NCBI GenBank assembly: GCA_902384935.1
Contig: CABMDO010000009.1
Coordinates: 74,983 to 138,982, forward strand
DNA: 64,000 nt
Origin: Candidatus Norongarragalina meridionalis
GTDB lineage: Archaea; Micrarchaeota; Micrarchaeia; Norongarragalinales; Norongarragalinaceae
Direction: 5' to 3'
Made by a program: the position numbers and the translations under genes. Numbering within the stretch: the first letter of the stretch is position 1; every line of letters begins with the position of its first letter. Shown here piece after piece: positions 5,357 through 61,925 of this stretch. The notes beneath the pieces were generated by a model. It had not been told where the DNA came from. It saw nothing but the letters and a program-made list of their open reading frames with translations, and made no database searches.

Positions 5357-5405
5357 GAAAGTGTTTGGGTGAAAGAATTTTTAAACGCCGCGCACTAGGC
5401 TTTGC

Positions 5406-5849: not shown

Positions 5850-5862
5850 AATTACCAAAAGC

Positions 5863-6048
5863 ATGACGCTCGGCGACGTGGTGTCGCGCTATCCGAACGC
5901 CACGGGAGTTATGCTCAAACACGGCCTGCACTGCGCGGGCTGCCCCGGCGCAATGATGGAAACAGTCGAGATGGGCGCGGTTGCGCACGGCATGACCGCG
6001 GCGCAGCTGGCGAAGATGCTCAGGGAAATGAACGACGCCGAGAAGTGA
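5863..6048 (+). CDS. DUF1858 / hybrid-cluster-protein-associated redox disulfide domain protein
   Basis: MTLGDVVSRYPNATGVMLKHGLHCAGCPG matches the small CxxC DUF1858 family. Confidence 0.55.
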   Translation: MTLGDVVSRYPNATGVMLKHGLHCAGCPGAMMETVEMGAVAHGMTAAQLAKMLREMNDAEK

Positions 6049-6087
6049 AGGCGCTGTTTTTTAAGAGGAAACGCGCAGGATAAGTGT

Positions 6088-7803: not shown

Positions 7804-8270
7804 TGCACCGCCCTGTCGGCACTGACTTTTCGTTTGACTTTCCACGTCTCAACGAGTGAAACCCATTCCGCGCCTATATGCTTGAACGCCTCGCCGAATT
7901 TCGTAGAAAGCGTCAGCCGCATGCCGTGGCGCTTGTCCTTGTCGTCCTGTCCAGTCGGGTTTTCCCTCTCGCGGGAAAGCAATCCGACGCGCACGAGCTT
8001 CGGAATAACGAGGTTACGGAGCGTGGAATTCGGAATCTTGTGCTCCGCCTGCCACGCCGCAATTGCGTCGCCGTCCGCCTCCCCTTTCTCGGAAAGGAAG
8101 CGGATGAATTTGCATGCTATCTCGTACTGCGCAGCTTGCGCCTGTGGCGGGAATATCAGCTTCAGGACGTCTTCGGCTTCCCAGCGGGCGCTAACCGGCA
8201 TCGGGAGCGCCGAATACTCGAACCACAGCGACTTTTTCGACGGAATTCCACGAGAGGCGGGTTCAGGCAT
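7800..8270 (-). CDS. hypothetical protein, probable winged-helix
   Basis: Protein-like C-terminal 156 aa starting at MPEPASRG. The upstream part of the listed 264-aa ORF runs through a repeat-rich non-coding region and is probably not translated. Confidence 0.4.
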   Translation of the reverse strand: MPEPASRGIPSKKSLWFEYSALPMPVSARWEAEDVLKLIFPPQAQAAQYEIACKFIRFLSEKGEADGDAIAAWQAEHKIPNSTLRNLVIPKLVRVGLLSRERENPTGQDDKDKRHGMRLTLSTKFGEAFKHIGAEWVSLVETWKVKRKVSADRAVH

Positions 8271-19806: not shown

Positions 19807-20286
19807 TTAAACGTTAACAATCCGCGGCCCGCTCTTCACTGGAAGCGCTCCGCCGTTCAATGCGTCGGGATGCGCGTCGAAGTAAACGGCCGCCTCCTTA
19901 TTCAGCGGGTCCTTCGTGTTCGGGTGCTCGAGAAGTTGTTTCAGCGCCTTCACGACGCTGAGAATCGTCTGCCCTTCCGCCCAGTTGTTGATAAGCTGGA
20001 TGCACACCTTGCCGTCCTTTTCGTGGATGTTCGGATGGAAAATGGGGGTGAGCCACGTGACGTCGATTCCGCCGGCATAGGGATATTCGCGCAGCAAGTC
20101 GATTTGGACGGAATGGGCGTCCCTGCGCATGACTGATTCTCCGTTCCGGTAAAGCCCCACTCCGCGCACACTGACCAGATAACGCGTACGCTCGGCGTTT
20201 ACTTCAAAGCGCTCGCCGCTTTTCTCCATCTCGGCGTACTCGCTGTCAAGCCGACGGCGCCATATCTGCTCGGGAAGCATCGGCAT
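19807..20286 (-). CDS. ubiquitin-conjugating enzyme E2-like protein (UBC fold)
   Basis: HPNIHEKDGKVCIQLI matches the UBC active-site motif HPN(I/V)xxxGx(I/V)C(L/I)xxL with a catalytic Cys. ~159 aa. Confidence 0.7.
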   Translation of the reverse strand: MPMLPEQIWRRRLDSEYAEMEKSGERFEVNAERTRYLVSVRGVGLYRNGESVMRRDAHSVQIDLLREYPYAGGIDVTWLTPIFHPNIHEKDGKVCIQLINNWAEGQTILSVVKALKQLLEHPNTKDPLNKEAAVYFDAHPDALNGGALPVKSGPRIVNV

Positions 20287-20295
20287 TGGAAACCC

Positions 20296-20538
20296 TCAGC
20301 CGCCAGTCGGATCCGGAATCAGGAGGAGTGAATCCCCTTCCTTTATGCCGGCGTCGGAAATCGTCAGTTCGGGGTTAAGGATTTTGTTGTCCTTCGTCGC
20401 AAGAACGAACCTGTCCTTGAGCTGCAGGCTCTCGGTAAGAACTTCGAGCACCGACGAGATGGTGAACGTCGGTTCGACGGCCACCACGATTTCCTTTCCA
20501 GACGTGGAATGAGTTACTGTAACGTTGAATTCTGCCAT
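20296..20538 (-). CDS. ubiquitin-like beta-grasp modifier ending in Gly-Gly
   Basis: 80-aa protein MAEFNVTVTH...SLLLIPDPTGG with a stop immediately after the C-terminal diglycine. Confidence 0.7.
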   Translation of the reverse strand: MAEFNVTVTHSTSGKEIVVAVEPTFTISSVLEVLTESLQLKDRFVLATKDNKILNPELTISDAGIKEGDSLLLIPDPTGG

Positions 20539-20587
20539 GTGGCACCACCAAAACGGTTTAAAGAGCACGGGCAATATAACCTTTTTC

Positions 20588-20995
20588 ATGGCATCCGGAC
20601 CGCGCATCGTGAAAAAGGACAGCGACGGCTTTGTCGAGATATCGATGGGCGGACACGAGGAGCAGAAGCCGCCTGCCGCCGAGGAGAAGAAGAACGCGAT
20701 GGAGGTTGCTCCCGAAGAAGTAGGGGAACGATTCGTCCGCGGCGAACTTCAAGAGATGCACAAACCGAAGATTGTTTCCGCCCGCGACGCATCGCCGCAG
20801 GACGCCGCCAGGGCGCAGAGAGCGGCTGCGTCCCGGGACATTACTCCCGTCACGGCAGGACCGCAGAATCCGATTGTCATGACTCAGGACGAGCGCGAGA
20901 AAGCCTCGGATCTCGCGCGCAAGATTTACCAGGAAAGGGAAGCGGAGAAGGAGAAGCGCCCGGCTCACCGCTTCAGGAAACTGCTCGGACTGTGA
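20588..20995 (+). CDS. hypothetical low-complexity/disordered protein
   Basis: 135 aa rich in A/E/K/R, no domains. Divergent from the Ub-like gene and directly upstream of the JAMM gene. Confidence 0.3.
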   Translation: MASGPRIVKKDSDGFVEISMGGHEEQKPPAAEEKKNAMEVAPEEVGERFVRGELQEMHKPKIVSARDASPQDAARAQRAAASRDITPVTAGPQNPIVMTQDEREKASDLARKIYQEREAEKEKRPAHRFRKLLGL

Positions 20996-21003
20996 TATAG
21001 GAT

Positions 21004-21468
21004 ATGGCGCAGTACGACGTCTACATCGACGAAGCGGCGGTGCGCAAAGCCGAAAAGCAGTTCCGCGACGCCGCCCGCAACGGAAAAGAGGCGATGGGGC
21101 TCCTTCTGGGAAACGTGTTTCATTCGGACGGAAGCGAATTCGTTCACGCAACCGACTATGTCACCGCGCCGAACGATTCAACCGCCGTCTCCGTGCGCTT
21201 CACTAGGCAGGCGTTCTCCGAACTGAGCGGAAAAATACGCGGCAAGGGGCTGATAGTTGCCTGGGCGCACTCGCACCCGGGATACGGCTGCTTCCTTTCC
21301 TCCACGGATATGGCGACGCAACATAGGTATTTCTCCGAAAAATTTCACTTCGCGCTCGTGATGGACCCTACGCGGCGCGAAGGAAGCGCAATGCTTAAGA
21401 GGGCGTTCCGCCTGAAGGACGGGGGCTACGAAGAGGTTTCGTTCGCGGTTGTGAGGAAACGTGGCTGA
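21004..21468 (+). CDS. JAMM/MPN+ metalloprotease (Rpn11-like deubiquitinase/isopeptidase)
   Basis: JAMM motif AHSHPGYGCFLSSTD (HxHx7Sx2D) with an upstream Glu. 154 aa. Confidence 0.75.
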   Translation: MAQYDVYIDEAAVRKAEKQFRDAARNGKEAMGLLLGNVFHSDGSEFVHATDYVTAPNDSTAVSVRFTRQAFSELSGKIRGKGLIVAWAHSHPGYGCFLSSTDMATQHRYFSEKFHFALVMDPTRREGSAMLKRAFRLKDGGYEEVSFAVVRKRG

Positions 21469-22219
21469 ATCCGAGACGCAGGCAACTGCGCCTGAAAAAA
21501 AACGCAAGGCACGCAAAAAAAACCTAGAGATAACGCTGTTCGACCGCTCGGTTGCGAAGGAGGTCATGAACGGCGTTTCGAGCGTCGCCTCCCTCAAAGA
21601 AAAATTCAAGTCCGTGGACGAAACGGAGTTCGACGCACGGCTCCGCGAGCTCTCCGCCGAAGGTTATTTCGCGCTCAACGGCGACGTGGTGAAGTTCGGA
21701 ATAAAGGGATTCAACGCGTTCGCTCCCAAACCGAAGAAGGAAAAGGCGAAAGCGGTTGCGCCCGCCGTGCAGGCAAAAACAAAGGAAGAAACGCAGGTTT
21801 CCCCTGCGGCGTCCATTGCTCCCGAATCTCCCGCGCAGAAGACCGATGAGCGCATGGATCTGGACGAGGCGTTCCGCAAGGGCGCGCCGTCGGGAACAGG
21901 CGACTCTTTCTTCGCCAAGCGAAGGAAGCAGCGCGAAGGCGCCGCCGCCGAAGCAGCGGCAGCCGCACCGATACAGCCGCTGAAGAACGGCGAGGAAGGC
22001 GCGTGCGAGCTGTGCAAGGCGCCTTTCAAGATATCAACAGGCGCCGAAAACAACCCGCGCTACGGGCACTGCTTCTGCGGCGCGGCGTACCACCAGGACT
22101 GCTACGAAACTTTGGCGGCTACTGGCGCGAACTGCGTCCGATGCGGAAAGAAAATCAAGCTCACTGTTGACAGGCGCACCGAGGAAGCGATGAAGGGCGT
22201 CAAGGACGCGTTCGACTAG
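21461..22219 (+). CDS. RING-type zinc-finger protein (candidate E3 ligase) with Lys-rich disordered N-terminus
   Basis: C-terminal CELC-x15-HCFC-x4-H-x2-C-x11-CVRC cross-brace Cys/His pattern. Start overlaps the JAMM stop. Confidence 0.55.
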   Translation: MAESETQATAPEKKRKARKKNLEITLFDRSVAKEVMNGVSSVASLKEKFKSVDETEFDARLRELSAEGYFALNGDVVKFGIKGFNAFAPKPKKEKAKAVAPAVQAKTKEETQVSPAASIAPESPAQKTDERMDLDEAFRKGAPSGTGDSFFAKRRKQREGAAAEAAAAAPIQPLKNGEEGACELCKAPFKISTGAENNPRYGHCFCGAAYHQDCYETLAATGANCVRCGKKIKLTVDRRTEEAMKGVKDAFD

Positions 22220-22974
22220 GAAGGGTGTACTGGGCAACCAGCGCGTTTTGGAATGCCGTACGTTTTTGCCTCGCCTTTTAATCCGTCGTAGAAAAGGAAC
22301 CTGTTTTCCAGCGTTTCCCCCTGATTGAACAGCATCTTCAGGAATTCGTTCGCCTGAATCGCCGCGACGATTGACGTCGTCGTGGGCAGCGCGGGCATCT
22401 TCGGATCCAGGAAGTCCAGGATTTCCCCGACGCACGAATACTTCTTCCACATGAGCTTGTAGTCGCGCGTGCTGATACCGCATTCTATGCAGGCAGACGG
22501 CGCGCGAACCGTTTGCACCCTGCCGTTGAACGCCGCGGTTCCTCCGTCAATGAGCGGAACCTTGCCATAGCATTGGGCGTTCAGGTGCAGCCTTGCGCCG
22601 AGGTTGTCGAGGCAGCCGAAGGCACAGTCGAAGGAAGAGAAAACGCCCTCGTCGACGTGCTCAATATGTTTGTCAATTACCGCGATTTCTGCTGCGGGCT
22701 CCAGACGCTTCGCCTCGCGCGCTACGACATCGGCTTTCTTCTTCCCGACGTCCGCCTCGGAGAAAAAAACGCATCGGTTAAGATTCGCGGGAACGATTTC
22801 GTCGTAATCAACGAGAGTGATTTTGCGGACGCCCAACTGCAGCAGGTTCTTTACGACTTCGTTGCCGAGGGCGCCTGCGCCGACGACTAGAACCCGCGCG
22901 CCGGCGACGCTCTCCTGCTTCCATCCCGCGACGCGTTTCTGCCTGTCGTGCCTGTCGGCGTCGATTGCTTCCAC
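22216..22974 (-). CDS. E1-like ubiquitin-activating enzyme (ThiF/MoeB/UBA fold)
   Basis: DRQKRVAGWKQES, nucleotide-binding loop VLVVGAGALGNEV, ITLVDYDEIVPANLNR, and CxxC pairs (CIECG). Confidence 0.75.
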   Translation of the reverse strand: MEAIDADRHDRQKRVAGWKQESVAGARVLVVGAGALGNEVVKNLLQLGVRKITLVDYDEIVPANLNRCVFFSEADVGKKKADVVAREAKRLEPAAEIAVIDKHIEHVDEGVFSSFDCAFGCLDNLGARLHLNAQCYGKVPLIDGGTAAFNGRVQTVRAPSACIECGISTRDYKLMWKKYSCVGEILDFLDPKMPALPTTTSIVAAIQANEFLKMLFNQGETLENRFLFYDGLKGEAKTYGIPKRAGCPVHPS

Positions 22975-35721: not shown

Positions 35722-36909
35722 ATGGAAACCAAACCGCTAGCAAGGAAGGAAGGAGTTAGCGAAAGCTTTTTGCGGAACGGCATTGCTTCCGGCAGCATCG
35801 TTGCGCTCGGAAACTGCGCAGTAGGTGCGGGCTTGCGCACTAAGACGAACGCCAACCTCGGATGCTCCGAAGGATTCTCCTCGTTGAAAACCGAGATGGA
35901 GAAGGCGGAAATCGCGGTGAAATACGGCGCCGACGCGCTGATGGATTTGAGTGTGGTCGACGTCGGGTTGCGCGCCAGATTGAAAAAATTCGGCGTGCCC
36001 GTAGGAACCGTTCCCGTTTACGACACGTTCGCGAAGAAGAATCCCGACGCCGACGACTTCTTCGGCGCGGTTGAGCGCCACTGCAAGGACGTGGACTTCG
36101 TAACGGTGCACTGCGGCGTCACAAGGAGCACGAGCGCGCTTGCAATGAAACGCCTAATCGGCATCGTCAGCAGGGGAGGGGCGCTCACTTCCCTTTGGAT
36201 GGCTAAGACCAAGCAGGAAAACCCGTTTTACGCGGAGTTCGACTATTTGCTGGAGATTCTAAAGGACAGCGGCGTCGCGCTCAGCCTCGGCGACGCTCTG
36301 CGGCCGGGTGCGCAGGCGGATGCCGACGACGCCGCGCAGGAGGCGGAACTTCGCATCAACGGCGCGCTTGTCAAGAGAGCGAGGAGAGCGGGGGTTGCCA
36401 TTTTCGTGGAAGGGCCGGGGCACATGCCGCTCGACAAAATCGCGCCGCACGTGAAGCACATGAAAAAGGTGTGCGGAAACGCGCCCTACTACGTGTTGGG
36501 GCCGCTTGTCACCGATTTGGGCGCGGGGCACGACCACATAACCGCCGCAATAGGCGGGGCGGTTGCGGGCGCCGCAGGCGCGGACTTCCTCTGTTATGTG
36601 ACGCCTTCGGAGCATCTTTCTTTCCCCGACAAGGAGGACGTGCGCGAGGGAGTCATTGCGGCGAGAATTGCGGCGCATGCGGCGGACATAGCGAAAGGCG
36701 TTCCGAACGCCCGCACACAGGACGACAGATTGTCGAAAGCGAGGGCGAATCTTGACTGGAAGACACAGTTCGCGCTCTCCTTCGACACGGACGCGTGCGT
36801 GCGCTATCGCAGGTCGCGACCTCCCGCGTGCGGGAACGTCTGCAGCATGTGCGGCGAGTTTTGCGCCGTGAAGGCTTTTCGGGAATCGAAGAAGGAGGCG
36901 GGAAAATGA
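35722..36909 (+). CDS. thiC: phosphomethylpyrimidine synthase
   Basis: Short archaeal ThiC with conserved blocks and the C-terminal CSMCGEFCA Fe-S cluster motif. Confidence 0.8.
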   Translation: METKPLARKEGVSESFLRNGIASGSIVALGNCAVGAGLRTKTNANLGCSEGFSSLKTEMEKAEIAVKYGADALMDLSVVDVGLRARLKKFGVPVGTVPVYDTFAKKNPDADDFFGAVERHCKDVDFVTVHCGVTRSTSALAMKRLIGIVSRGGALTSLWMAKTKQENPFYAEFDYLLEILKDSGVALSLGDALRPGAQADADDAAQEAELRINGALVKRARRAGVAIFVEGPGHMPLDKIAPHVKHMKKVCGNAPYYVLGPLVTDLGAGHDHITAAIGGAVAGAAGADFLCYVTPSEHLSFPDKEDVREGVIAARIAAHAADIAKGVPNARTQDDRLSKARANLDWKTQFALSFDTDACVRYRRSRPPACGNVCSMCGEFCAVKAFRESKKEAGK

Positions 36910-37217
36910 AAGGATACATGAAAATGGTGCACAGGCACAACCACGTCGCCTATGCCGGCATTCTGCCGCAGGGACTTGCGGTGGTGCATCTCAACCGCAA
37001 GCTTGCGCCTTCGGACATCACGTCCGCGGCGAAGTCGCTCGGACTGAAGGTTTCACAGCATCCGCCGAAGCGCAGCAGGCGGGTTGACGTGCGCGACTCG
37101 CGGGGCAACCTCGTTGCAACCGTTGTCGGCAACGACCTCGCGCTCCTGCCCGGCCATCCGAAGAACATGGAGCTTACCAAGGATTTCGTGAACGCGCTGC
37201 TCAAGGGGAAGCGTTAA
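36906..37217 (+). CDS. hypothetical protein
   Basis: 103-aa ORF whose ATG overlaps the thiC stop (ATGA). Confidence 0.3.
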   Translation: MKGYMKMVHRHNHVAYAGILPQGLAVVHLNRKLAPSDITSAAKSLGLKVSQHPPKRSRRVDVRDSRGNLVATVVGNDLALLPGHPKNMELTKDFVNALLKGKR

Positions 37218-37241
37218 TAATTTCCGAGAGGTAATTTAGTC

Positions 37242-38669
37242 GTGAAATTCAAGACAACCGCCGACATCCCCGTGCCTTCGGACCCGCTCGAGCAGGTAAT
37301 AGGGCAGGACGAGGCGGTTCGGGTTGCCAAGACGGCGTGCAGCCAGCGCCGGCATCTTCTCCTGGTAGGACCGCCGGGAATCGGCAAGAGCATGATAGCG
37401 CAGGCCATTGCGTACCGTTTGCCGAAACCCACGGAAGAGATAAGCGTCCTGCACAACCCCGAAAACCCCGAACGCCCCACGATCGAGGTGCGGAGTTCCA
37501 CGGAAATAGAGAAGGAGCGCAAACTCGTGAAAGCGGCGGAAGCTGCGAAACTCATCGACCCTTCGGAAGCGCCCGCCATGGTTGCGGAGCGCCTCGGCTT
37601 CAGGTGCAGGTTCTGCGGTTCGCCTTCGAAACACTCCGAACGCGCCTGCCCGAGCTGCGGACGCGAGAAAACCGACATGTTCTCGCCATATCCGAACATA
37701 TTCATCGGTGCGCGCCCCCAGGCATCGCCCGAACGCGTGCACACTACGCGAATCACCGACGGCGAGCGCGAGGAGGTGGTCATATACGAACGCACGGGCG
37801 AGAAAATCCGCGTGCTCGACCAGTCGGTTCTCGAGAAAATCGACGCGATAAAGCGCAAACTCCCGCGCCGCGTGATCGTCCCGCTTGAAAGGAAGACTTT
37901 CGTGACCGCATCTGGAGCGAGCGAGACGGAATTGCTGGGCGACGTGCGGCACGATCCGTACGGGGGGCACGCGCAGGTCGGAACTCTTCCGTACATGCGC
38001 GTCGTTCCGGGCGCGATACACGAAGCGCACCAGGGCGTCCTGTTCATAGACGAGTTGAGCGCGCTCGCTTACGTCCAGCGCTTCCTGCTGACTGCCATGC
38101 AGGAGAAGAAATTTCCGATTGTAGGGAGGAACCCGCAGAGCGCGGGCGCGTCGGTGCGCGTCGAGGAAGTGCCCTGCGACTTCGTGCTTGCGGCGGCATC
38201 GAACATAAACGACCTGAAGATGATCCTTCCGCCCTTGCGCTCGCGCATAGTCGGCAACGGCTACGAACTGCTTCTTGAAACGACTATGCCGGACACTCCT
38301 GCGAACCAGGAAAAGGTTGCCCGTTTCGTTGCGCAGGAAATCCGCAAGGACGGCAAGATTCCGCACGCTTCCGCCGCGGCTGTCGAACGCTTGATCGACG
38401 AGGCGCGCAAAAAAGCGAAGGAATTCGACAACACGGACAACGCGCTTTCATTGCGCTTCCGCGAACTCAGCGGCATAGTGCGGCTCGCTGGGGACAACGC
38501 CATAGGGAACGGCGAGAAAACAATCGAGGAAGGCAACGTGGAGGACGCGGCGCGCCGCGGACGCTCCATCGAACAGCAGTTGCGCGACAAATACGGCTCG
38601 CTCTGGAAAGCAGGGGAAAGCGAGAACGTCAGCGCGCCGAAGGACGCGAAGCGCAGCGAAATCAGCTAA
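37242..38669 (+). CDS. LonB-like AAA+ ATPase lacking protease domain, with Zn-ribbon insert
   Basis: LonB N-terminus (VIGQDEAVRV, LLLVGPPGIGKSM), Walker B VLFIDELS, GDVRHDPYGG. CRFCGSPS...CPSCGRE replaces the LonB TM hairpin. The ORF ends without a Ser-Lys protease domain. Confidence 0.6.
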   Translation: MKFKTTADIPVPSDPLEQVIGQDEAVRVAKTACSQRRHLLLVGPPGIGKSMIAQAIAYRLPKPTEEISVLHNPENPERPTIEVRSSTEIEKERKLVKAAEAAKLIDPSEAPAMVAERLGFRCRFCGSPSKHSERACPSCGREKTDMFSPYPNIFIGARPQASPERVHTTRITDGEREEVVIYERTGEKIRVLDQSVLEKIDAIKRKLPRRVIVPLERKTFVTASGASETELLGDVRHDPYGGHAQVGTLPYMRVVPGAIHEAHQGVLFIDELSALAYVQRFLLTAMQEKKFPIVGRNPQSAGASVRVEEVPCDFVLAAASNINDLKMILPPLRSRIVGNGYELLLETTMPDTPANQEKVARFVAQEIRKDGKIPHASAAAVERLIDEARKKAKEFDNTDNALSLRFRELSGIVRLAGDNAIGNGEKTIEEGNVEDAARRGRSIEQQLRDKYGSLWKAGESENVSAPKDAKRSEIS

Positions 38670-39184
38670 TCCTTGCTAGACAGATAGGTAGTTCTTTTTG
38701 TATCGTATATTGCAGAATTATCTTTAAACTTATGTCCGGATACGCCCACGGGCTTGGACCTAATTTGGGGGCGACAGTCATGATTATCTGAATGAAAATG
38801 CAAATGACATAAAATCTTGTGGCATAGAGGACATGCGGTTTTTTCAAATGCGTTAAGTTTCTTTTTACAAACGGAACATACGCCGTAGGTTTTCTGACGT
38901 TTCCTTGGTTTAGAGATAAGTTCCGGAGCAGAATGCACTTCGTGGAGGCGGTGCTCCGTACAGAAAAGTCCGTGACAGAATGAACATTTGAAGCCGCAGG
39001 TACCTCCAGCAGACGCGCCACAATATTCACAAATAGGCGCGCTATATTTTGCGGAGAAAACAGCAGATTTTGCAGGGGCTATGAAGTATTTTTCTAAAAA
39101 GCCCCGGTGATCTATAGAAACGACTCGATTATTCGACTGATGTTCTAACCCCAATCTGAGCTTAAGCCATCTCCAAAAGCCCAT
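38666..39184 (-). CDS. tandem AN1-type zinc-finger protein
   Basis: Two AN1 fingers: CEYCGASAGGTCGFKCSFCHGLFCTEHRLHEVH and CSVCKKKLNAFEKTACPLCHKILCHLHFHSDNHDC. Lies in an AT-rich (~42% GC) segment. Confidence 0.6.
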   Translation of the reverse strand: MGFWRWLKLRLGLEHQSNNRVVSIDHRGFLEKYFIAPAKSAVFSAKYSAPICEYCGASAGGTCGFKCSFCHGLFCTEHRLHEVHSAPELISKPRKRQKTYGVCSVCKKKLNAFEKTACPLCHKILCHLHFHSDNHDCRPQIRSKPVGVSGHKFKDNSAIYDTKRTTYLSSKD

Positions 39185-39188
39185 AAAA

Positions 39189-39704
39189 TCAATTTTCGCT
39201 TAGCACGTACGCGAACAGGCTTCCGACCTTCTGCGCGTTCCTGAGCATGAAATCCGTTCCGCCGCTTACGTATATCCTGTCGGAAACGCGCACGCAATCG
39301 CAGTTCGATATCTCGACAACCACCTGCGCGCCGGTGCAATTCGTCGTGTTTGCGTTGCAGTTGATGGTGGGCACTCCGTCCACTACGCCATAGACATAAA
39401 CCGTCTTGTTCGAAACGTAAAGCGAATGCGCCGCCTCCGCAGCCATTACCGCAACTGCGGAATTGCGCGGATCCGAAGCGTTGACGAGCCGCTCCTCCAC
39501 CACTATGGTATGCGAAGCGAGCGCCCCGGCGAGCTCCTCCTTCGCATTGCCGGCGAAAATGATGCGCAAACCGTCGATGGTGGTCTCCTTCTGCCCCGCG
39601 CCCTTGGACAGGAAGAACATTGCCGCGAAAACAACGGCGAATACGACGACGAGCAGGACTGTTTCGGTCCAGTTTTTCCCTTCTTTTTTCTTCTCCTCGC
39701 TCAT
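39189..39704 (-). CDS. membrane-anchored/secreted hypothetical protein
   Basis: Start MSEEKKKEGKNW then a TM helix and a Cys/Asn-rich domain. The 5' remainder of the listed 328-aa ORF is an Arg/Gly-rich run-on. Confidence 0.4.
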   Translation of the reverse strand: MSEEKKKEGKNWTETVLLVVVFAVVFAAMFFLSKGAGQKETTIDGLRIIFAGNAKEELAGALASHTIVVEERLVNASDPRNSAVAVMAAEAAHSLYVSNKTVYVYGVVDGVPTINCNANTTNCTGAQVVVEISNCDCVRVSDRIYVSGGTDFMLRNAQKVGSLFAYVLSEN

Positions 39705-40588
39705 ACCAGAACCTCCAAACCCTCTTCCGCCATAAGCGTATCCTTGAAAACCAGCCTCGCCTCCTTCAGGAGCGGGGAACGGTCCTCGTAGCGGTTGCTC
39801 GCGTGCGTGAGCAGGAGCTTCTTCGCCCCGGCTTTTTTCGCGCACTCCGCCGCTTCTTTCGCAGTGGAATGGAACTTCTCCTTCGCCATCTTTCCGTCCG
39901 CTTCCGCGAAACAGGCGTCGTGAATCAGCAGATCCGCGTCCTTCGCGGCGGCCTGCAACTCGGAACACGGCGCGGTGTCGCCGCTGTACGTGATTTTCTT
40001 GCCTGCCTGCTTGTAGGTGATGTCCTCGAGCCGCACGGTCTTTCCGTTGACGACGAGCTTGCCCTTTTTCTGAATTTCCGTGAACATCGGGCCCCTCAAA
40101 CCTTTGGATTTCGCCTTCGCCTCGTCGAAACGGATTTTTTCGCCTTCCTCGAGAACGTAGCCGAGCGCCTTGCACCCGTGCTTGACGGGAAAGGCGCGCA
40201 CGGAGAACAGCCGCTCGTCGAGAACCGTACCTTCGCGGGCTTCCTTGACGGAAATTGGAAAAGCGGGTGCGAGCTCCTTCAGCGAAAAAATCGTCTCCAT
40301 CATTTTCTTCGTCCCTGCGGGCCCCGTGATGAGCAGCTCATCCCTCCTGCCTATCATTCCGAGCGTCTGCACCAAGCCGAAAACGCCTAGAAAGTGGTCC
40401 GCGTGCAGATGCGAGATGAAAATCGCCCTTATCTGGCCGTAGTTCGCGCCGAATTTCATCATCTGCCGCTGCGCTCCTTCGCAGCAGTCGAACAGATAGG
40501 TCGCCCCGTATTTCACCGCGAACGAGCTGGGGACATGCCTGGGGCTGGGAAGGGAACCGCCGCTGCCCAACGCTACGAGGCGAATCAT
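39701..40588 (-). CDS. rnz: ribonuclease Z (tRNA 3' endonuclease)
   Basis: Metallo-beta-lactamase motif HLHADH. 295-aa short-form RNase Z. Confidence 0.75.
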   Translation of the reverse strand: MIRLVALGSGGSLPSPRHVPSSFAVKYGATYLFDCCEGAQRQMMKFGANYGQIRAIFISHLHADHFLGVFGLVQTLGMIGRRDELLITGPAGTKKMMETIFSLKELAPAFPISVKEAREGTVLDERLFSVRAFPVKHGCKALGYVLEEGEKIRFDEAKAKSKGLRGPMFTEIQKKGKLVVNGKTVRLEDITYKQAGKKITYSGDTAPCSELQAAAKDADLLIHDACFAEADGKMAKEKFHSTAKEAAECAKKAGAKKLLLTHASNRYEDRSPLLKEARLVFKDTLMAEEGLEVLV

Positions 40589-40623
40589 AAACCTTTTAAC
40601 GACGCCGAGCTTTTTAATGTATT

Positions 40624-41607
40624 ATGGCGAAGCGCAGGGCTGCGAAGCCGACGTTAAAAGCAAGAACCACCGCGGACCTAGCGGTGCCTACGCGGCTCGT
40701 CGACCAGGTGATCGGGCAGGAGAAGAGCGTCGACATCATAAAGAAAGCCGCGAAGCAGAAGCGCCACGTAATGCTCGTGGGCACGCCCGGCACTGGAAAG
40801 AGCATGCTCGCGCAGGCGATGGCGGAGCTACTGCCCGCGGAGAAGCTCGAGGACATACTTATCGAGGAGAATCCGGAAAACGAGAACATCCCGCGCGCGA
40901 AAACCGTGAAAGCGGGCGAGGGAAGGAAAATCGTCGACGAAATGCGCATGAAAACGCAGCTCGGCGGCAAGGACATGAACATCGTCTACGTGTTCTTCAT
41001 TTTCATCGCGTCGTTTTTCCTGCTCGCATACGGCAGGCAGCAGCTCGGCGACGTCATAACCGCCGCGATGCTCATCGGCCTGTTTCTCGTAGGCGGGGTG
41101 ATGATGCTCGGCTCGCAGCTGTCGCGCGGAAGGGCTGGCGCGGGTTACGAGTCGGTGAAGCTGCTAGTTGACAATTCCGGAAAAACAATAGCGCCGTTCA
41201 TCGACGCTACGGGCGCGCGCGCAGGAGCGCTGCTCGGCGACGTGAAGCACGACCCCTTCCAATCGTTCGACGGCGGAACTGTTGTTGACGGCGCGGACGA
41301 AAGCATGGAGAACCTCTGGAAGAAGATGGCTAGGAAACACGCCGCATTGATTGAGCGGAACGAGGAGGGGTACGAGGCAATAGTCCTGCCGAAGAACGAG
41401 CGCGTTTACGCGTACGGTTTGAAGGCGGGGCGCATAGTGCGCAGCAGAATCCGCATAATCAACCGCCGCCCGTACCGCGGAAAAGTAGTGCGCGTGAAAG
41501 CGGGCAGGCGCGCCATCACCACCACGCCGGAGCACGGATTCTATTCGAAACCTAAGAAAACCGCGAATTCCCTGCGCAAGGGGACGCCGCTCGTCGTAAG
41601 GAGGTAA
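40624..41607 (+). CDS. LonB N-terminal fragment (Walker A + TM hairpin) fused to intein N-fragment-like Hint module
   Basis: Aligns to LonB through LLGDVKHDPFQ, then diverges into ~114 aa: SFDGGTVVDG (intein block A-like with Ser1) ... AITTTPEHGFY (block B TxxH). Ends with no Walker B or protease domain. Confidence 0.5.
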   Translation: MAKRRAAKPTLKARTTADLAVPTRLVDQVIGQEKSVDIIKKAAKQKRHVMLVGTPGTGKSMLAQAMAELLPAEKLEDILIEENPENENIPRAKTVKAGEGRKIVDEMRMKTQLGGKDMNIVYVFFIFIASFFLLAYGRQQLGDVITAAMLIGLFLVGGVMMLGSQLSRGRAGAGYESVKLLVDNSGKTIAPFIDATGARAGALLGDVKHDPFQSFDGGTVVDGADESMENLWKKMARKHAALIERNEEGYEAIVLPKNERVYAYGLKAGRIVRSRIRIINRRPYRGKVVRVKAGRRAITTTPEHGFYSKPKKTANSLRKGTPLVVRR

Positions 41608-41611
41608 TTCT

Positions 41612-42073
41612 ATGGAGAAAACATTCGTGATGCTAAAACCGGATGCGGTTCAACGCGGCTTGGTCGGCGATATTACGTCGCGCTTCGAGCGCAAGGGATT
41701 GAGGCTCATCGCCACGAAGATGATATGGCTTAAGGACTCGCAACTGGACGAGCACTATTCGCAGTACCTCGGAAAGGACTTCTTCCCGAGATTGAAGGAG
41801 TTCATGGGCGCCTGCCCCGCGGTTGCGATGGTTTGGGAAGGGAAGGATGCGGTGAAGGTTGTGCGCGCCCTCTGCGGATTGACGAACGGGCGCGAGGCTG
41901 CGCCCGGCACAATACGCGGCGACTTCGGCATGAGCCTGCAGTGCAACCTCGTGCACGCGTCGGACGGCGTGGAAACCGCAAGCAAGGAGATAGCGCGCTT
42001 CTTCAACGGGAACGAGATATTCACGTACGGGGATTCCCTTTCGGAATTCCGCTACGCGAAGGACGAGCGTTAG
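41612..42073 (+). CDS. ndk: nucleoside diphosphate kinase
   Basis: ERTFVMLKPD, NLVHASD active-site His region. 153 aa. Confidence 0.85.
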   Translation: MEKTFVMLKPDAVQRGLVGDITSRFERKGLRLIATKMIWLKDSQLDEHYSQYLGKDFFPRLKEFMGACPAVAMVWEGKDAVKVVRALCGLTNGREAAPGTIRGDFGMSLQCNLVHASDGVETASKEIARFFNGNEIFTYGDSLSEFRYAKDER

Positions 42074-42645
42074 AAGTCGCCCAAGCCGAGCATTATGTTC
42101 TGGATTCCGCGCGTGAGCAGCAGCAGTCCCATTATTTTGGCAACGACGCCTATCAGGCGCTGCCCGAGCGCCTTCGTCAGGTATGAGGAATAGCGTATTA
42201 CCAGCCAGCTCGCGATTACCACGCCGAGTATGGCGAAGAATAGCGGAAGAAGCGGCGTATCCGCCGCTTGAAGAATTATCGCGGTGATGACTCCGGGGCC
42301 CGTGAGCATCGGCGTGCCTATGAGCACGGCGATTGCATCCTCGTCCGACGCTTCCACCTTCGTCAGCGATATGCCGAGGGACGTCTGGATTCCGAGTATG
42401 GAAAGGATTACTCCTCCAGCTATCCTGAACGCGGAAATCTTCAAGCCCATCACGTCGAGCAGGGGCTCTCCGATGAAGAGAAACGCCAGGGCGAGCCCGC
42501 CCGCGACAAGAGCGGCCTTGTCCGCGGCGTGCCTTCGCTGCGCCTCGGAAAAGTCCTTCGTGAGCGTAAGGAACGGCATCACGCTGGACAGGGGGTTCAT
42601 GATTACGAATAGGACTGCGAATGCGGTGAGAAACTGCTCGAACAT
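42070..42645 (-). CDS. MarC family (UPF0056) membrane protein
   Basis: 191-aa 6-TM protein with the MarC profile (MNPLSSVMPFLTL...). Confidence 0.6.
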   Translation of the reverse strand: MFEQFLTAFAVLFVIMNPLSSVMPFLTLTKDFSEAQRRHAADKAALVAGGLALAFLFIGEPLLDVMGLKISAFRIAGGVILSILGIQTSLGISLTKVEASDEDAIAVLIGTPMLTGPGVITAIILQAADTPLLPLFFAILGVVIASWLVIRYSSYLTKALGQRLIGVVAKIMGLLLLTRGIQNIMLGLGDF

Positions 42646-51643: not shown

Positions 51644-51718
51644 GGGCCTATAGCTCAGCCTGGATAGAGCGGTTGGCTTCTAACCAAAAGGTCGAGGGTC
51701 CGAATCCCTCTAGGCCCG
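51644..51718 (+). tRNA. tRNA-Arg (anticodon TCT)
   Basis: Hand-folded cloverleaf: 7-bp acceptor stem, 4-bp D stem, anticodon loop CTTCTAA, 5-bp T stem with TCCGAAT loop. No encoded CCA. Upstream AT-rich TATA-like box. Confidence 0.75.
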
Positions 51719-58595: not shown

Positions 58596-59283
58596 CGGCG
58601 GAATAATAGCGGAACTTTTTCTCGTCATCCTTGAATTCGCCCGAGTGAACTGTTCGTCGCATGCTTTTTCCCCTCTGATAGAGGACGCGGTGCTTGCAGT
58701 GCAGCAATTCGTGATAGACCACGTACTCGACGACGAATTCCGGAACGCGCGGATTGTCTAGAGTCTTATTGATTACGATTTGCGAGAACGCGGAATCGTG
58801 GAAACCGAGAACGCGCGAACCGCGATGCGAAGACCAGACAACCGAGGGGGAAGGAATACCCGTGAAAATCTCGGCGTATTCGGTTCTGACGCGCGCCATT
58901 ATTTCCATCAGGTCGTACGCAGTTCCTCTCGCGTTTTCCTCCCGTTTTCTGCCCCGCCCCCTGCGCAGCGCATCGTGCAGATGCGAAACGCTTTCGCGCG
59001 AAACGAATTCGCGGTATTCGTCGACGTAAGGCGAGGAGATTTTCCTGCGGTAGATTTTCGACAGCAGCGAGAGCGCGAGCCCGACGAGAACGTCCCTCGA
59101 AGCCACGGCATAGCCGTCGCTCACCGACGCAAAAACATTTCCACTGCGCAGGCGCACGCTCGCGCCGAGCCCGGCGCGCCTGCGGAATCGCGCGTCGACG
59201 TGCGCATTTTCGCCGAGAATCGCCATTGCGGAGCAAAAAGCTTCCTGCAGCGCGGAGTTTTCCACGGAAAAAAAACCGCGCAA
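58555..59283 (-). CDS. DUF45/YgjP-like metal-dependent hydrolase (HExxH)
   Basis: WSSHRGSRVLGFH...INKTLDNPRVPEFVVEYVVYHELLH parallels the DUF45 WGSC...YVVvHELaHL block. TATA-like box ~25 nt upstream of the start. Confidence 0.45.
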   Translation of the reverse strand: MRGFFSVENSALQEAFCSAMAILGENAHVDARFRRRAGLGASVRLRSGNVFASVSDGYAVASRDVLVGLALSLLSKIYRRKISSPYVDEYREFVSRESVSHLHDALRRGRGRKREENARGTAYDLMEIMARVRTEYAEIFTGIPSPSVVWSSHRGSRVLGFHDSAFSQIVINKTLDNPRVPEFVVEYVVYHELLHCKHRVLYQRGKSMRRTVHSGEFKDDEKKFRYYSAANAWLSHSRGILS

Positions 59284-59299
59284 ACAAATATATACTCCG

Positions 59300-59640
59300 C
59301 TTGAATCATGAATTCATCACTTAACGGGGTGAAAACACATGGCAAAGAAAAAGAAGAAGAAGAAGAAATAATTCCGTTAAAGCGGAACGGAAATCGTAGT
59401 CTTGATTTTTCCCTCCCCTGTTTTTAGAAATTTTTGGAAAAGCTTAAATACTTCTTTTGTTTGATGAATTCGCCCTCACAAGGGCGGTGAAAACAATAAT
59501 GATGAAGAAGAAGAAGAAGAAATAAAGCAGATTTGTCCGCTGACGAATTCTGAAACTGTTGCCTTGATTCTCTTTCTTCTTTTTTATTTTTCGTCTCCCG
59601 CATGACGCATCCCCGAGATGCGTCGAACGGGGGTTCTTTC
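59300..59640. repeat. duplicated ~70-bp element with poly-lysine micro-ORFs and flanking hairpins
   Basis: Two copies of ATGAATTC-N10-13-GG(G/C)GGTGAAAACA-ATG-(AAG)n-AAATAA, encoding MAKKKKKKKK* (59339..59371) and MMKKKKKK* (59499..59525). Hairpins CGCCCTcacaaGGGCG and GACGCATCcccgaGATGCGTC. Confidence 0.5.
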
Positions 59641-59687
59641 TCCGTTTTCTGCAAGGTTTATATCGCGGAAGTTCCCGATATTATCTT

Positions 59688-61925
59688 ATGCCCGAATTCG
59701 CGGAACTACCGGAAACTATGCGGAAAATCCGCGTGCCCAGGGACCTCCACGAGTATCTTGACAGGATAGAGGATGCGGCAGGCGGGAACAGCACCGAGGC
59801 AATAGTAAACACGTCACTGCTTAGCGAATACGGCCCCGCGTCGACGCTGCATTTCCTCAGGCTCATCAAAAGCGCCAGAACCGTGCAGGGCGTGGAAGCC
59901 GCCGCCTCGCAGGCTACCATCATGCTCAAGCAGCTGAAGGAACTAAAGGAAATGGGCTTCAAAGACAAAACGCTCAGGGAACTTTATGCTCCGGTTTACA
60001 GGGAATACTTCGGAAGGGAGTCCACTTCCAAGGACAGGATCGAGAAATACATCGACAGGACGTTCGGCTTCATCGAGAGCAGGGACCCGCAGGTGCTATC
60101 GCTCACCGTGGACCAGTTGTACAGCAGGGCGTTCGGCGGAATCGCGGACGCTTTCGGGAGGGAAAACACGCGCGACGAAGCGCGCGCGCGGCTCGCAATA
60201 ACCCTGTCCGAGGCGGGGCTGCTGCCCGAAATGATTCAGAGCGGAATCGCGACAAACGGAATAGTCCGCGCCATGGAGCTCGCCGCAAAGAAAACTGGAA
60301 TCGGCATGACCGAAACCGTGCGCAACGAGGAGGGCGAAATCGAGGACAGACATCTTACCGGAAGGAAAATCGCTTCGATCCTGCTGAAGACGTCGCAGGC
60401 GCTGCCTGACCCGAGGAAACGCCTGATAATCGCCCTCAGGGTTTTCGAGAGCGGAGAAGAAGCGGCGAGAGCATTGGGCGAAACCGCCCTGAACGAGACG
60501 CTCGAAGACGAAAACAGCGTCATGGACGCGATCGGTTTGCTTAGGCAGACGGAAACTGAAGACAGCAGTAACCTTCTGTCGAACAGGATACGCAGCTCAT
60601 TCTCGAAACTCGAGGGGGAAGGGCGCGGCGAAACGCTGCGCAGGGCGATGGATGCGCTCGGCGAACTGGCGACTTCGGAAGTAAGCGGAGCGGTTCCGAA
60701 CGCAACGGCAGCCGCGGACACTATACGGAGCATAGTTCTCAAGGACGGGAAATACGTCTGGACCCACGACGAGGTACCACCAAAACGCAGGAAATTTCTG
60801 GGTTTGAAGTTAGGAAAGCATAAAACGCCGCCTAAGGCGATAGATTACCTTTTCAGCGCAATGGGAATACACGGAAACAACGAGACTTTCGCGAAAACCG
60901 CGTCGAACATATTGCGCGAGATGCCGGTCGAGGAGCTCATGCGCAGGGAAAGGTTCGAAGAATACGTTTATCCGATGCTCTCGACAATCGAAAGCAGGGC
61001 GAACTCCGATGAGCGAAAGGAACTCCTCAGGAAGTTCGGCAGGATACTCGCGCACGGGGACTTCCACAAGGGAATCGGGCGCTTCCTCACGAGCAGGCGC
61101 GGCGCGGAAACGACCAAGAGCATAGTGCACACGCTCAGCGATGTCGCCACGAAACCCAACGAAACGCCGACAAATGTGATGTGGTCGGTCGGGCTCATTC
61201 GCAGGGTAATGCTGAAGGCGCCGCGCATGCCCATGGACCCGACGACGAAGAAGAAGATAACGGACGCCATCACCGCGGGCATGACGAACAAGTCCGGCCC
61301 CGTGCACGTGCTCTCTTACAAGACCACCTACGACCTGGAATCCAAGATTCCGAAACTTAAATGGCTGAGCCACGACGTCGTGCCGAACTACAACAAGTTC
61401 GTGGAGATAACCCGGATAAATCCCCTGAGGCAGAAGATAGACGATCTGGAAGCCGAGATGCTGCTCAAGAAAAGGCGCATGGAAGAATTGGGCCCGGAGG
61501 CGGACGAAGCGAAGCTGCTGCGCGCCGAAAAGGAAACTCTCACCAAAAGGCTGCAGGAGACGCGCCAGATGCTGGCGGAGGAACACCAGGGGCATGCCGT
61601 CCTGCTGCAGATACTCGCGGGATTGAAGAAGCGCAAACTGTTTTCGCACACGGAAACGCCGACACTGAGCGAGGAAGGGAAAAAGCTCATCGACGACGAA
61701 CTGAGAATGCACGTGGAAGAGCTCGGAAGCGACATAATAAGGCAGGCGCACGAATACGTGAGAACCCAGCAGGGCAGGGAACTGAAGCTCAAGGAAATTC
61801 AGGAAGAACTCAGGGCGATGCAAGCGGTGCTCGCCGCCGCGCCGAAACCGTCGCGGAGGATTCCGCGCGGGGAAATCGCAGGTCTTAGGAAAGAACTGGA
61901 AGACCTTCTGAAAATCATCGGCTGA
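59688..61925 (+). CDS. large hypothetical protein with C-terminal coiled coil
   Basis: 745-aa ORF with balanced composition and no recognisable catalytic motif. The C-terminal ~150 aa are heptad-like and charged (KIDDLEAEMLLKKRRMEELG...). Confidence 0.5.
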   Translation: MPEFAELPETMRKIRVPRDLHEYLDRIEDAAGGNSTEAIVNTSLLSEYGPASTLHFLRLIKSARTVQGVEAAASQATIMLKQLKELKEMGFKDKTLRELYAPVYREYFGRESTSKDRIEKYIDRTFGFIESRDPQVLSLTVDQLYSRAFGGIADAFGRENTRDEARARLAITLSEAGLLPEMIQSGIATNGIVRAMELAAKKTGIGMTETVRNEEGEIEDRHLTGRKIASILLKTSQALPDPRKRLIIALRVFESGEEAARALGETALNETLEDENSVMDAIGLLRQTETEDSSNLLSNRIRSSFSKLEGEGRGETLRRAMDALGELATSEVSGAVPNATAAADTIRSIVLKDGKYVWTHDEVPPKRRKFLGLKLGKHKTPPKAIDYLFSAMGIHGNNETFAKTASNILREMPVEELMRRERFEEYVYPMLSTIESRANSDERKELLRKFGRILAHGDFHKGIGRFLTSRRGAETTKSIVHTLSDVATKPNETPTNVMWSVGLIRRVMLKAPRMPMDPTTKKKITDAITAGMTNKSGPVHVLSYKTTYDLESKIPKLKWLSHDVVPNYNKFVEITRINPLRQKIDDLEAEMLLKKRRMEELGPEADEAKLLRAEKETLTKRLQETRQMLAEEHQGHAVLLQILAGLKKRKLFSHTETPTLSEEGKKLIDDELRMHVEELGSDIIRQAHEYVRTQQGRELKLKEIQEELRAMQAVLAAAPKPSRRIPRGEIAGLRKELEDLLKIIG

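Follow-up and report, generated by a model that had tools for sequence, protein, structure and literature searches.

The AN1 zinc-finger gene at positions 38666–39184 (minus strand) of the window, that is, of the whole 64,000-nucleotide stretch of DNA analysed here from Candidatus Norongarragalina meridionalis (Micrarchaeota, DPANN), is well supported as a laterally acquired accessory gene that occupies a gene-sized slot between two conserved host genes. By sequence comparison, its product is one of the small, basic proteins with several AN1 fingers that make up a rare archaeal family. We lean towards the view that this is an archaeal-family AN1 accessory gene, acquired laterally, whose fingers would be recognition modules and whose product would act as an adaptor or a regulator. 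AN1 fingers are familiar from eukaryotic proteasome and p97 biology; archaeal AN1 fingers are, to our knowledge, annotated and functionally blank. Work by Burroughs, Iyer and Aravind from 2011 on prokaryotic binuclear treble-clef fingers reportedly discusses prokaryotic AN1 fingers, and our literature search on archaeal AN1 proteins or Norongarragalina ubiquitin-like systems found no paper. With regard to the prokaryotic roots of the ubiquitin–proteasome network, the family is of use for its putatively ligand-swapped finger, its repeated JAMM fusion and its character as AT-rich, horizontally moving cargo. For the window itself, the outcome is mostly corrective: the gene was acquired as an accessory, in a slot that resembles a cassette site.

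The AN1 gene and its variable slot

An AN1-domain protein of 172 aa, claimed in an earlier note on this DNA, is real: its gene is a single intact ORF, its sequence is 100% identical to the NCBI entry 'AN1-like Zinc finger [Candidatus Norongarragalina meridionalis]', and a Pfam search, the check that the note had suggested, matched zf-AN1 (PF01428) over two stretches with 33.6 bits (E 4.3e-8), above the gathering cutoff of 27.9. The start codon was confirmed because the N-terminus is conserved in the family. The core Cys/His pattern of AN1 occurred twice in the six-frame translation of the window and not once in 200 shuffles. The sole other Pfam match of the protein, to DUF5679, was sub-threshold (E 0.079; 13.6 bits, with the cutoff at 27), profile searches of NCBIfam, PADLOC and PHROGs gave no match, a word-index homologue search returned only the protein itself, and a look-up of contigs by its exact sequence gave no entry. 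Its single-sequence AlphaFold model, with a pLDDT of 41, is uninformative.

The GC content of the gene is 0.430 (43.0%) against 0.573 for the window, and its GC3 is 0.399 against 0.739 ± 0.034 in 29 Pfam-supported host genes, corresponding to z scores relative to these genes of about −10 for GC3, −12 for GC and −6.9 for CAI. Of its 12 Cys codons, 10 are TGT, a codon that makes up 4% of the Cys codons of host genes. The dip in GC (0.40–0.47 in 200-bp windows) matches the boundaries of the gene, which bears out the low-GC island described earlier, and the comparison of GC and codon usage with the host places the gene far from the host norm.

Lateral acquisition, which had been suggested from base composition, is now supported by synteny as well. 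Between 36001 and 42360, the 534-bp stretch at 38668–39201 is the only one without similarity to the congeneric genome L001. In blastn comparisons, the left flank (36001–38667) corresponds to L001 2648–5308 at 82% and the right flank (39202–42360) to L001 6182–9319 at 80%, and collinearity breaks exactly where the two flanking genes end. The L001 slot (5309–6181; GC about 0.40) holds no AN1 gene and instead carries an unrelated gene for a Doc-like toxin (Pfam Fic, 29.1 bits; phrog_577, E 1.5e-19). Because the congeneric genome has a different low-GC gene at the syntenic position, lateral acquisition or cassette turnover is supported, and the slot neatly illustrates the allelic replacement of cargo among DPANN genomes of one genus. 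The contig of a second relative, L002, stops 57 bp short of the slot. Searched for repeats, the slot showed no att-like sequences, TSD or notable direct or inverted flanking repeats; no mobility gene was found within 5 kb of it, and the only tRNA in the window lies at 51644. A weak tblastn match in L067 (E 0.84) was rejected as an AN1 relative, as it lies inside an unrelated SepF-like ORF.

On one side, the AN1 gene is convergent with a gene for a 475-aa LonB-like AAA+ ATPase (37242–38669, plus strand), the two stop codons overlapping by 4 bp. The ATPase matches Pfam AAA families and positions 170–403 of the NCBIfam LonB model (356.6 bits, below the cutoff of 516.6), has neither a TM segment nor a protease domain, and is conserved (48–58% identity) in Micrarchaeota, Thermoplasmata and Altiarchaeales, where no AN1 gene adjoins it. 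The earlier note had placed the AN1 gene beside a Lon-like unfoldase; the position is correct, but the adjacency is not conserved and is functionally uninformative, because the Doc toxin fills the slot in the sister genome and none of 80 loci encoding this ATPase has an AN1 gene near it. On the other side, a co-directional gene for a 171-aa protein with an N-terminal TM helix (39189–39704, minus strand) has its stop 4 nt ahead of the AN1 ATG. This protein gave no match in Pfam or NCBIfam; its gene is conserved in L001, where the Doc gene comes next, and is itself preceded by an RNase Z-like gene of the RNase Z-type MBL class (39701–40588, minus strand).

The genes of the archaeal relatives described below are likewise AT-shifted, with GC3 0.10–0.28 below that of host genes in all five loci tested, and their neighbours include an integrase with hypothetical genes, a ParE/MazE/RHH cluster, a DDE transposase and, as judged by eye, an apparent RelE/ParE-type toxin–antitoxin pair. 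The AN1 gene could be read as cargo of an archaeal mobile or conflict gene pool (defence, anti-defence or addiction-type) with no housekeeping role, in which the fingers, together with the JAB domain of some relatives, would target host or invader proteins. We consider this somewhat unlikely, since neither PADLOC nor PHROGs has a match for the AN1 proteins, a search of IMG/VR with family alignments found no loci, phage and plasmid collections were negative in tblastn, no partner gene is conserved, and mobility genes are absent from the slot in the window. The search with family alignments found no loci in metagenome contigs either.

An archaeal multi-AN1 family and its JAB/JAMM fusions

An exhaustive search of 1.84 billion representatives gave 31 matches at E ≤ 1e-3, four of them at E ≤ 1e-10. 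The nearest relatives (E 5e-21 to 1e-7) belong to a small family marked by a helix at the N-terminus, a variant finger and a C-terminal tail of its own, delineated here as the window protein and P0002–P0005, P0007–P0010, P0012, P0014, P0016 and P0027; a word-index search with the family alignment returned three proteins only. The family layout runs from an N-terminal MGFxxWxK helix through one to four variant AN1 fingers and one canonical C6H2 finger to either a Y-x-DGT tail or a JAB/JAMM domain. Of the five longer contigs bearing the family, three or more hold archaea-specific genes, and the archaeal markers in its neighbourhoods comprise rpoH with split rpoB, aS21, aEF-1beta, GatD/E and OapB/C.

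The N-terminal family motif of the window protein, MGFWRWLKLRLGLE (residues 2–14; 39143–39181, minus strand), is predicted by AF2 models to form a short helix. The N-terminus MGFWRWLKLRLG aligns with MGFLSWIKNLLG and MGFFDWIKRLLN and conforms to MG(F/L)xxW/F(I/L)K, and the motif MGF(F/L/W)xW(I/L)Kx(L)L is common to P0002, P0003, P0009, P0010, P0008, P0004 and P0027. At the other end, the family tail GHKFKDNSAIYDTKRTTYLSSKD (38669–38737, minus strand) follows the consensus Y-x-D-G-T-x-(I/V)-x-D-x-x-R-x-x-Y, with FKDNSAIYDTKRTTY (compare YKDGTIVWDYSRN, YKDGTKISDTSQR and YPDGTKIIDLRRP in relatives) conforming to Y/F-x-D-(G/N)-(T/S)-x-(I/V)-x-D-x-x-R. The penultimate Tyr of two family tails (…GYV and …GYT) was considered as an HbYX proteasome-docking motif, an idea that was dropped, as neither the window protein nor the majority of members conserves the motif.

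The two fingers had been described as complete AN1 fingers of the pattern C-x2-C-x9-12-C-x1-2-C-x4-C-x2-H-x5-H-x-C, which is correct for finger 2 but not for finger 1. Finger 2 (38774–38878, minus strand), with the ligands C103, C106, C118, C121, C126, H129, H135 and C137, is a canonical C6H2 finger that matches the full pattern by regex. Finger 1 (38933–39031, minus strand; Pfam stretch 52–85 and regex) is the variant C52-x2-C55-x11-C67-x2-C70-x4-C75-x2-H78-x2-H81-x2-H84, which retains seven of the eight ligands and ends H-S-A, with Ala86 at the position of the last Cys; the remaining 15 ligand positions of the two fingers are all retained. This arrangement fits the family rule of internal fingers of the form C-x2-H-x2-H-x2/3-H without the final Cys, followed by a terminal canonical finger. 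The internal fingers of about 13 relatives carry HRLH-x2-H without the final Cys, in contrast to the HRLP-x2-H-x-C of canonical AN1 fingers, and the combination of missing Cys and extra His is kept in internal fingers of relatives that are 30–50% identical. In the alignments, the extra His (H81 in finger 1) is nearly invariant across the family, and it may serve as a substitute ligand for the lost Cys. The ligand columns of finger 2 are invariant in the family alignment except for H129 and H135, the latter being nearly invariant. Finger 1 is 51% identical to the canonical archaeal finger CDFCGKPFGGDLPFSCKFCGGKFCTEHRLPESHEC.

P0010, P0016 and P0027 are AN1-AN1-JAB/JAMM fusions, in which a JAB domain replaces the C-terminal tail. 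By sequence, the JAB match of the fused domain is sub-threshold (below the Pfam cutoffs); Foldseek with this domain gave no match at E ≤ 1e-3, phmmer of it against PDB sequences gave nothing useful, and a homologue search with the JAB-domain alignment had no return. Its strongest structural matches are Ubl-specific JAMM enzymes. The fusions would partly rescue a link to Ubl-type deconjugation, to which they lend independent though indirect support. Archaeal JAMM/MPN+ Ubl-deconjugating enzymes (P. furiosus JAMM1 and the Caldiarchaeum Rpn11 homologue) are comparable to these three proteins only, the window protein being without a JAB domain. We know of no characterised JAMM enzyme fused to AN1 fingers, and the AN1–JAMM fusions offer a concrete, testable handle.

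Further matches of the fused domain are to RadC-like JAB and to a 'DNA repair protein' PHROG, and RadC-type JAB domains occur in DNA-repair and mobile-element settings too. Together with the JGI name of P0016, 'predicted nucleic acid binding AN1-type Zn finger protein', and the basic character of the family throughout (pI 8.6–9.8; 9.4 for the window protein), these matches would speak for a zinc-finger protein that binds nucleic acid, as a regulator or as an accessory in DNA/RNA repair, in line with the old COG annotation. Such a role seems quite improbable in view of the JAMM enzymes among the best structural matches, and specific nucleic-acid binding by an AN1 domain was not found in the literature searched, in which characterised AN1 domains mediate protein contacts (PMC5035049).

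Known AN1 systems and the ubiquitin-like cluster

COG3582 members are widespread in archaea. Those compared here (such as P0017, P0021 and P0025) have the same binuclear finger as the window protein, and both groups consist of small proteins with one to several fingers that are often membrane-tethered; TM segments are present in P0017, P0013, P0006 and P0020. However, COG3582-type fingers end in HRLP-x2-H-x-C, whereas the internal finger of the window protein has HRLH-x2-H and no Cys, and only the small family of the window protein has the MGFxxWxK N-terminus, the Y-x-DGT tail and the JAB fusions.

A tandem AN1 pair in a small protein is also characteristic of ZFAND1/Cuz1 and ZFAND2A/B (AIRAP, AIRAPL), which in eukaryotes serve the proteasome and Cdc48/p97 as adaptors (PMC5035049, PMC11047754). 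In AN1, a conserved aromatic residue directly precedes the penultimate zinc-binding Cys (Phe38 in Cuz1; PMC5035049), and this Phe is present in finger 1 (F74-C75) and replaced by Leu in finger 2 (L125-C126). In contrast, the (L/R)DFLP motif that marks the LDFLP subfamily is absent from both fingers, the sequence after the first Cys dyad being CEYCGASAGGTCGFKC in finger 1 and CSVCKKKLNAFEKTAC in finger 2; finger 1 is without its last Cys; and no Pfam match to the UBL of Cuz1/ZFAND1 or the UIM of ZFAND2A/B was found in the window protein, whose tail is of the Y-x-DGT type. Among the A20/AN1 proteins (ZNF216/ZFAND5, ZFAND6 and plant SAPs), the AN1 domain of ZNF216/ZFAND5 (1wfl and 7qxw; mouse ZNF216 and human ZFAND5) aligns to finger 2, whereas the termini differ: the window protein gave no Pfam match to the zf-A20 finger and begins with a Cys-free helix and a linker. 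Eukaryotic AN1 domains scored far below the family relatives (E ≥ 0.005 in the PDB). The protein can therefore be called eukaryote-like, as in the earlier note, at the level of the domain superfamily only, the nearest relatives lying in archaeal contigs and having family-specific termini, and a eukaryotic origin of the gene is not supported by these comparisons.

The window also contains a full Ubl/E2/JAB/RING-like/E1 cluster (19807–22974), with E2 at 19807–20286, Ubl at 20296–20538, JAB at 21004–21468 and the RING-like protein at 21461–22219. This cluster invites the reading that a ZFAND/SAP-like gene was taken from a eukaryote and works with the host ubiquitin-like system and the Lon-like unfoldase. 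The tandem AN1 layout shared with ZFAND1/2A/2B, the low GC of the gene and the binding of eukaryotic AN1 proteins to the proteasome and p97 agree with it. We regard this reading as highly improbable, since similarity to eukaryotic AN1 domains reaches only E 0.005–0.05, the best relatives lie in archaeal contigs and have their own termini, LDFLP, UBL, UIM and A20 are all missing from the window protein, and the Lon adjacency is not conserved. Nor does the gene lie near the ubiquitin system, as had been stated: the cluster is 15.7 kb away and separated from it by about 15 unrelated genes. The LonB-like ATPase and the Ub operon should not be taken for functional partners of the AN1 gene. Finally, that the gene is a decaying, non-functional remnant drifting towards AT, as Ala86 at the eighth-ligand position, the very poor codon adaptation and the lack of an orthologue in the sister genome might suggest, is scarcely credible given an ORF intact over 172 codons at 43% GC (random chance about 3e-5 by a hand calculation from base composition), the retention of every other zinc ligand, the conservation of the missing-Cys/extra-His state in relatives and the retention of both the N- and C-terminal family motifs.

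A possible role of the fingers

For the archaeal-family accessory gene favoured here, we tentatively propose the following scenario, which taken as a whole is possible rather than probable. The variant finger would keep two zinc ions, the extra His standing in for the lost Cys, and the AN1 fingers would be protein–protein recognition modules. In the fused relatives, the fingers may guide the JAMM isopeptidase towards conjugates of the Ubl type or towards a proteolytic or unfolding machine; the stand-alone form in the window may do likewise in trans, being then an adaptor or a regulator, perhaps one located at the membrane. We regard the adjacency to the LonB-like ATPase as incidental. Against this scenario, no conserved gene neighbourhood links the stand-alone protein with a partner, E1, E2 and Ubl genes were found in none of the family loci, and the sub-threshold JAB match is that of paralogous fusions and not of the window protein. 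A more far-reaching proposal, which we consider unlikely, is that the family corresponds in prokaryotes to the ZFAND adaptors of eukaryotes. AN1 fingers would already have served archaea as recognition modules that couple a JAMM isopeptidase with Ubl-tagged proteins or with AAA+/proteasome machines, the JAMM domain being fused in P0010, P0016 and P0027 and acting in trans for stand-alone forms. The acquired copy would then plug into the host's own E1-E2-RING-JAMM ubiquitin-like system, and HRLH-x2-H would represent a functional, previously undescribed C5H3 variant of AN1.

With respect to a location at the membrane, the N-terminal segment is a possible peripheral membrane-targeting helix. Its hydrophobic moment is the maximum of the protein in four of seven members; the window copy is not among these, and its segment is not strongly amphipathic (muH 0.25). 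In P0012, two TM helices replace the N-terminal motif.

Identity and composition of the AN1 gene

The source of the window is the Micrarchaeote (DPANN) MAG Candidatus Norongarragalina meridionalis LFW-144_1, which comprises 0.93 Mb with 57.5% GC (PMC8561730). The 172-aa product of the ORF at 38666-39184 (-) was 100% identical to the NCBI protein 'AN1-like Zinc finger' from the same organism and is a zf-AN1 member by score, the Pfam check asked for in the earlier note giving 33.6 bits in two stretches, above the cutoff of 27.9. Six-frame translation of the window contained two matches to the AN1 core Cys/His pattern, both of them inside this ORF, and 200 shuffles contained none. Of the two AN1 fingers that the earlier note regarded as complete, only finger 2 (38774-38878, -) has the full C6H2 pattern (C103...H135-D-C137); finger 1 (38933-39031, -; C52-x2-C55-x11-C67-x2-C70-x4-C75-x2-H78-x5-H84-S-A86) lacks the eighth ligand. 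Decay was rejected as the reason for the missing Cys, as every internal finger of the relatives has the same ending, C-x2-H-x2-H-x2/3-H without the final Cys, in which the extra His (H81 in the window) is nearly invariant. Canonical archaeal AN1 fingers, to one of which finger 1 is 51% identical, end instead in HRLP-x2-H-x-C. Comparison of the two endings thus pairs a Pro-to-His gain with the Cys loss, and together these would constitute a ligand swap in the variant finger.

The AN1 gene differed from the 29 Pfam-supported genes of the window in GC (0.430 vs 0.586 ± 0.013; z −12), GC3 (0.399 vs 0.739 ± 0.034; z −10), and CAI (0.384 vs 0.700 ± 0.046; z −6.9). Furthermore, TGT accounted for 10 of its 12 Cys codons, compared to 4% of Cys in host genes, and the GC dip coincided with the gene. 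The compositional anomaly is thus fully confirmed. Three more low-GC islands (1-870, 8190-9760, and 59069-59888; 519-bp windows below 47% GC, minimum 35%) contain only short or unassigned ORFs, such as a 59-aa ORF at 9092-9271 without a Pfam match, and may be further foreign or intergenic cargo.

The variable slot and the Lon-related genes

The synteny scan, with the LonB-like ATPase (37242-38669, +) as query and one genome per species, returned two close and 78 distant relatives. The congeneric MAG CG08_land_8_20_14_0_20_59_11 (locus L001) showed 80-82% nucleotide identity to window positions 36001-38667 and 39202-42360, and nucleotide alignment detected no similarity in it to the intervening slot, 38668-39201. 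Its counterpart interval (5309-6181) has a GC of ~0.40, compared to roughly 60% for the contig, and holds a gene that is unlike the AN1 gene, lies on the same strand, and starts 4 nt past the same upstream stop codon. By its matches to Pfam Fic (29.1 bits) and phrog_577 (E 1.5e-19), this gene (5553-6158, -) encodes a Doc-like toxin; a small 55-aa ORF follows it. The interval resembles a toxin-antitoxin-type cassette with the gene order reversed. In the second close relative, the contig stops 57 bp short of the slot. Neither att-like nor target-duplication repeats flank the slot, nor does any tRNA or mobility gene, and the simplest mechanism would be exchange by homologous recombination within the conserved flanks.

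None of the 80 ATPase loci scanned had a nearby AN1 gene. Considering also the Doc-like toxin gene in the L001 slot, the adjacency to a Lon-like unfoldase, to which the earlier note drew attention, is incidental. The proposed lateral acquisition was upheld by the foreign composition of the AN1 gene and by the different gene in L001. The AN1 gene is genuine, accessory, and laterally acquired, and it occupies a cassette-like slot; the genes beside it give no evidence on its function.

The LonB-like AAA+ ATPase has neither a TM segment nor a protease domain, carries a CxxC...CxxC zinc-ribbon insert (CRFCGSPSKHSERACPSCG), and is conserved in Micrarchaeota, Thermoplasmata, DHVE2, and Altiarchaeales (48-58% identity). 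Between thiC and this gene lies a small conserved ORF of about 103 aa from MKGYMKMVH... (window 36795-37217, +; L001 3553-3864), without a Pfam or NCBIfam match. In the LonB gene (window 40624-41607, +; L001 7595-8563), the stop falls within an intein, and the 327-aa product comprises LonB model positions 2-197 (Walker A and TM hairpin) and an intein N-terminal splicing region (TIGR01445, 24.8 bits, cutoff 24.5). This truncated LonB is followed by ndk, an arrangement kept in L001; the intein starts with Cys there (FQS|CYGG) and with Phe in the window (FQS|FDGG). No C-terminal half was seen within the window. Two readings are possible: a split intein/split LonB, or a LonB that has become a pseudogene.

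An archaeal multi-AN1 family and its JAB/JAMM fusions

Among 1.84 billion representative proteins searched exhaustively with phmmer, only 31 hits reached E ≤ 1e-3, and four of them E ≤ 1e-10. About a dozen (P0002-P0005, P0007-P0010, P0012, P0014, P0016, and P0027) share the whole architecture at 30-49% identity: an N-terminal helix, MG(F/L)xxW(I/L)KxLL, replaced by two TM helices in P0012; one to four variant AN1 fingers; a single canonical terminal finger; and the tail Y-x-DGT-x-(I/V)-x-D-x-x-R. All members are basic (pI 8.6-9.8). In four of seven members, the window copy not being among them, the helical hydrophobic moment of the protein peaks at the N-terminal 11-mer; as a lead, we presume a likeness to MinD/FtsA-type membrane-targeting helices. 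Directly 3' of the five-finger member P0005, a second Cys/His-rich gene (L091 2690-3010), AN1-like by eye, suggests local duplication.

The closest solved structures are eukaryotic AN1 domains (ZFAND1, ZNF216, ZFAND5, and Cuz1), matched at only E 0.005-0.05. The protein lacks the LDFLP motif, UBL, UIM, and A20 finger that define the eukaryotic LDFLP, UBL/UIM, and A20 types (PMC5035049). Its affinity is archaeal, not eukaryotic, and the description 'eukaryote-like' was sustained only at the level of the domain superfamily. At least three of five longer contexts of family genes are clearly archaeal (rpoH with split rpoB; aS21 with aEF-1beta and GatD/E; OapB/OapC). COG3582 is the long-standing annotation of archaeal AN1 proteins, and the JGI name of P0016 follows that wording.

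In P0010, P0016, and P0027, the tail is swapped for a ~130-aa domain with E...H-x-H-x7-S-x2-D. Sequence profiles gave sub-threshold yet consistent matches (Prok-JAB, E 0.016 and 0.084; RadC-JAB, E 7.5e-4; PADLOC JAB, E 1e-3), and all motif residues fell in register when hhalign aligned the domain with the JAB protein of the window. Among these profile matches was also phrog_5556 (E 7.6e-6), annotated only as 'tail protein', and such tail proteins presumably carry a JAB-type domain. The AF2 model of P0016 on the family alignment had a pLDDT of 72.5, and Foldseek ranks 2-50 were nearly all MPN/JAMM, none at E ≤ 1e-3. We accept the domain as a predicted JAB/JAMM fold with putative activity. These AN1-AN1-JAB/JAMM fusions come from uncultured archaea (L081 7884-8780; L087 8001-8765; protein P0027), the L087 gene lying within a hypothetical-gene run, with an integrase-like gene 2.6 kb upstream. 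We know of no described AN1-JAMM fusion. The ligand-swapped internal finger, terminal motifs, JAMM fusions, and consistent AT shift appear undescribed.

Possible function, mobility and the ubiquitin cluster

The fusion, present in three of about 13 members, ties AN1 fingers to putative cleavage of Ubl-like conjugates by a JAMM domain, and does not show the partner of the stand-alone window protein. Since the AN1 proteins characterised so far serve the proteasome and Cdc48/p97 as adaptors (PMC5035049, PMC11047754), an adaptor function is a reasonable but unproven analogy. The likeliest function, proposed tentatively, may be that of a zinc-finger recognition or adaptor protein tied to JAMM/Ubl-type processing.

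No E1, E2, or Ubl genes and no conserved neighbour were found at the family loci examined. Accessory content recurred around family genes: an integrase and then hypothetical genes (L087), a ParE/RHH/MazE cluster (L090), RelA_SpoT and a DDE transposase (L089), a RelE/ParE-type pair by eye only (L081), and a retropepsin-like protease (L085). GC3 of the family gene was well under that of host genes in all five loci compared (L081, 0.47 vs 0.71; L085, 0.33 vs 0.61; L087, 0.40 vs 0.60; L089, 0.43 vs 0.53; L090, 0.52 vs 0.67). Considering this low GC3 and the accessory neighbours, the whole family behaves like AT-rich archaeal cargo moving horizontally. Searches of IMG/VR and of phage and plasmid collections gave no carrier, and the AN1 proteins matched no PADLOC or PHROG family. 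The main alternative, that the AN1 gene is cargo of a mobile or conflict gene pool, is unlikely and somewhat less probable than the recognition or adaptor role.

The 130-aa retropepsin-like aspartic protease (L085 7555-7947; L086 335-727; weak Asp_protease_2/gag-asp matches), reminiscent of Ddi1-type proteases, is encoded 54 nt upstream of the three-finger member P0004 and co-directionally, in a single genomic context from two samples.

Elsewhere, the window of this Micrarchaeote holds a complete eukaryote-like ubiquitin cluster (19807-22974), of which we found no report for this lineage in the literature searched. It comprises an E2 (UQ_con; 19807-20286, -), a Ubl with a GG end (20296-20538, -), a JAB/MPN protein (21004-21468, +), a protein of 252 aa whose C-terminus carries a RING-like Cys/His cluster and which matched no family (21461-22219, +), and a ThiF-type E1 (22216-22974, -), and resembles the Caldiarchaeum operon.
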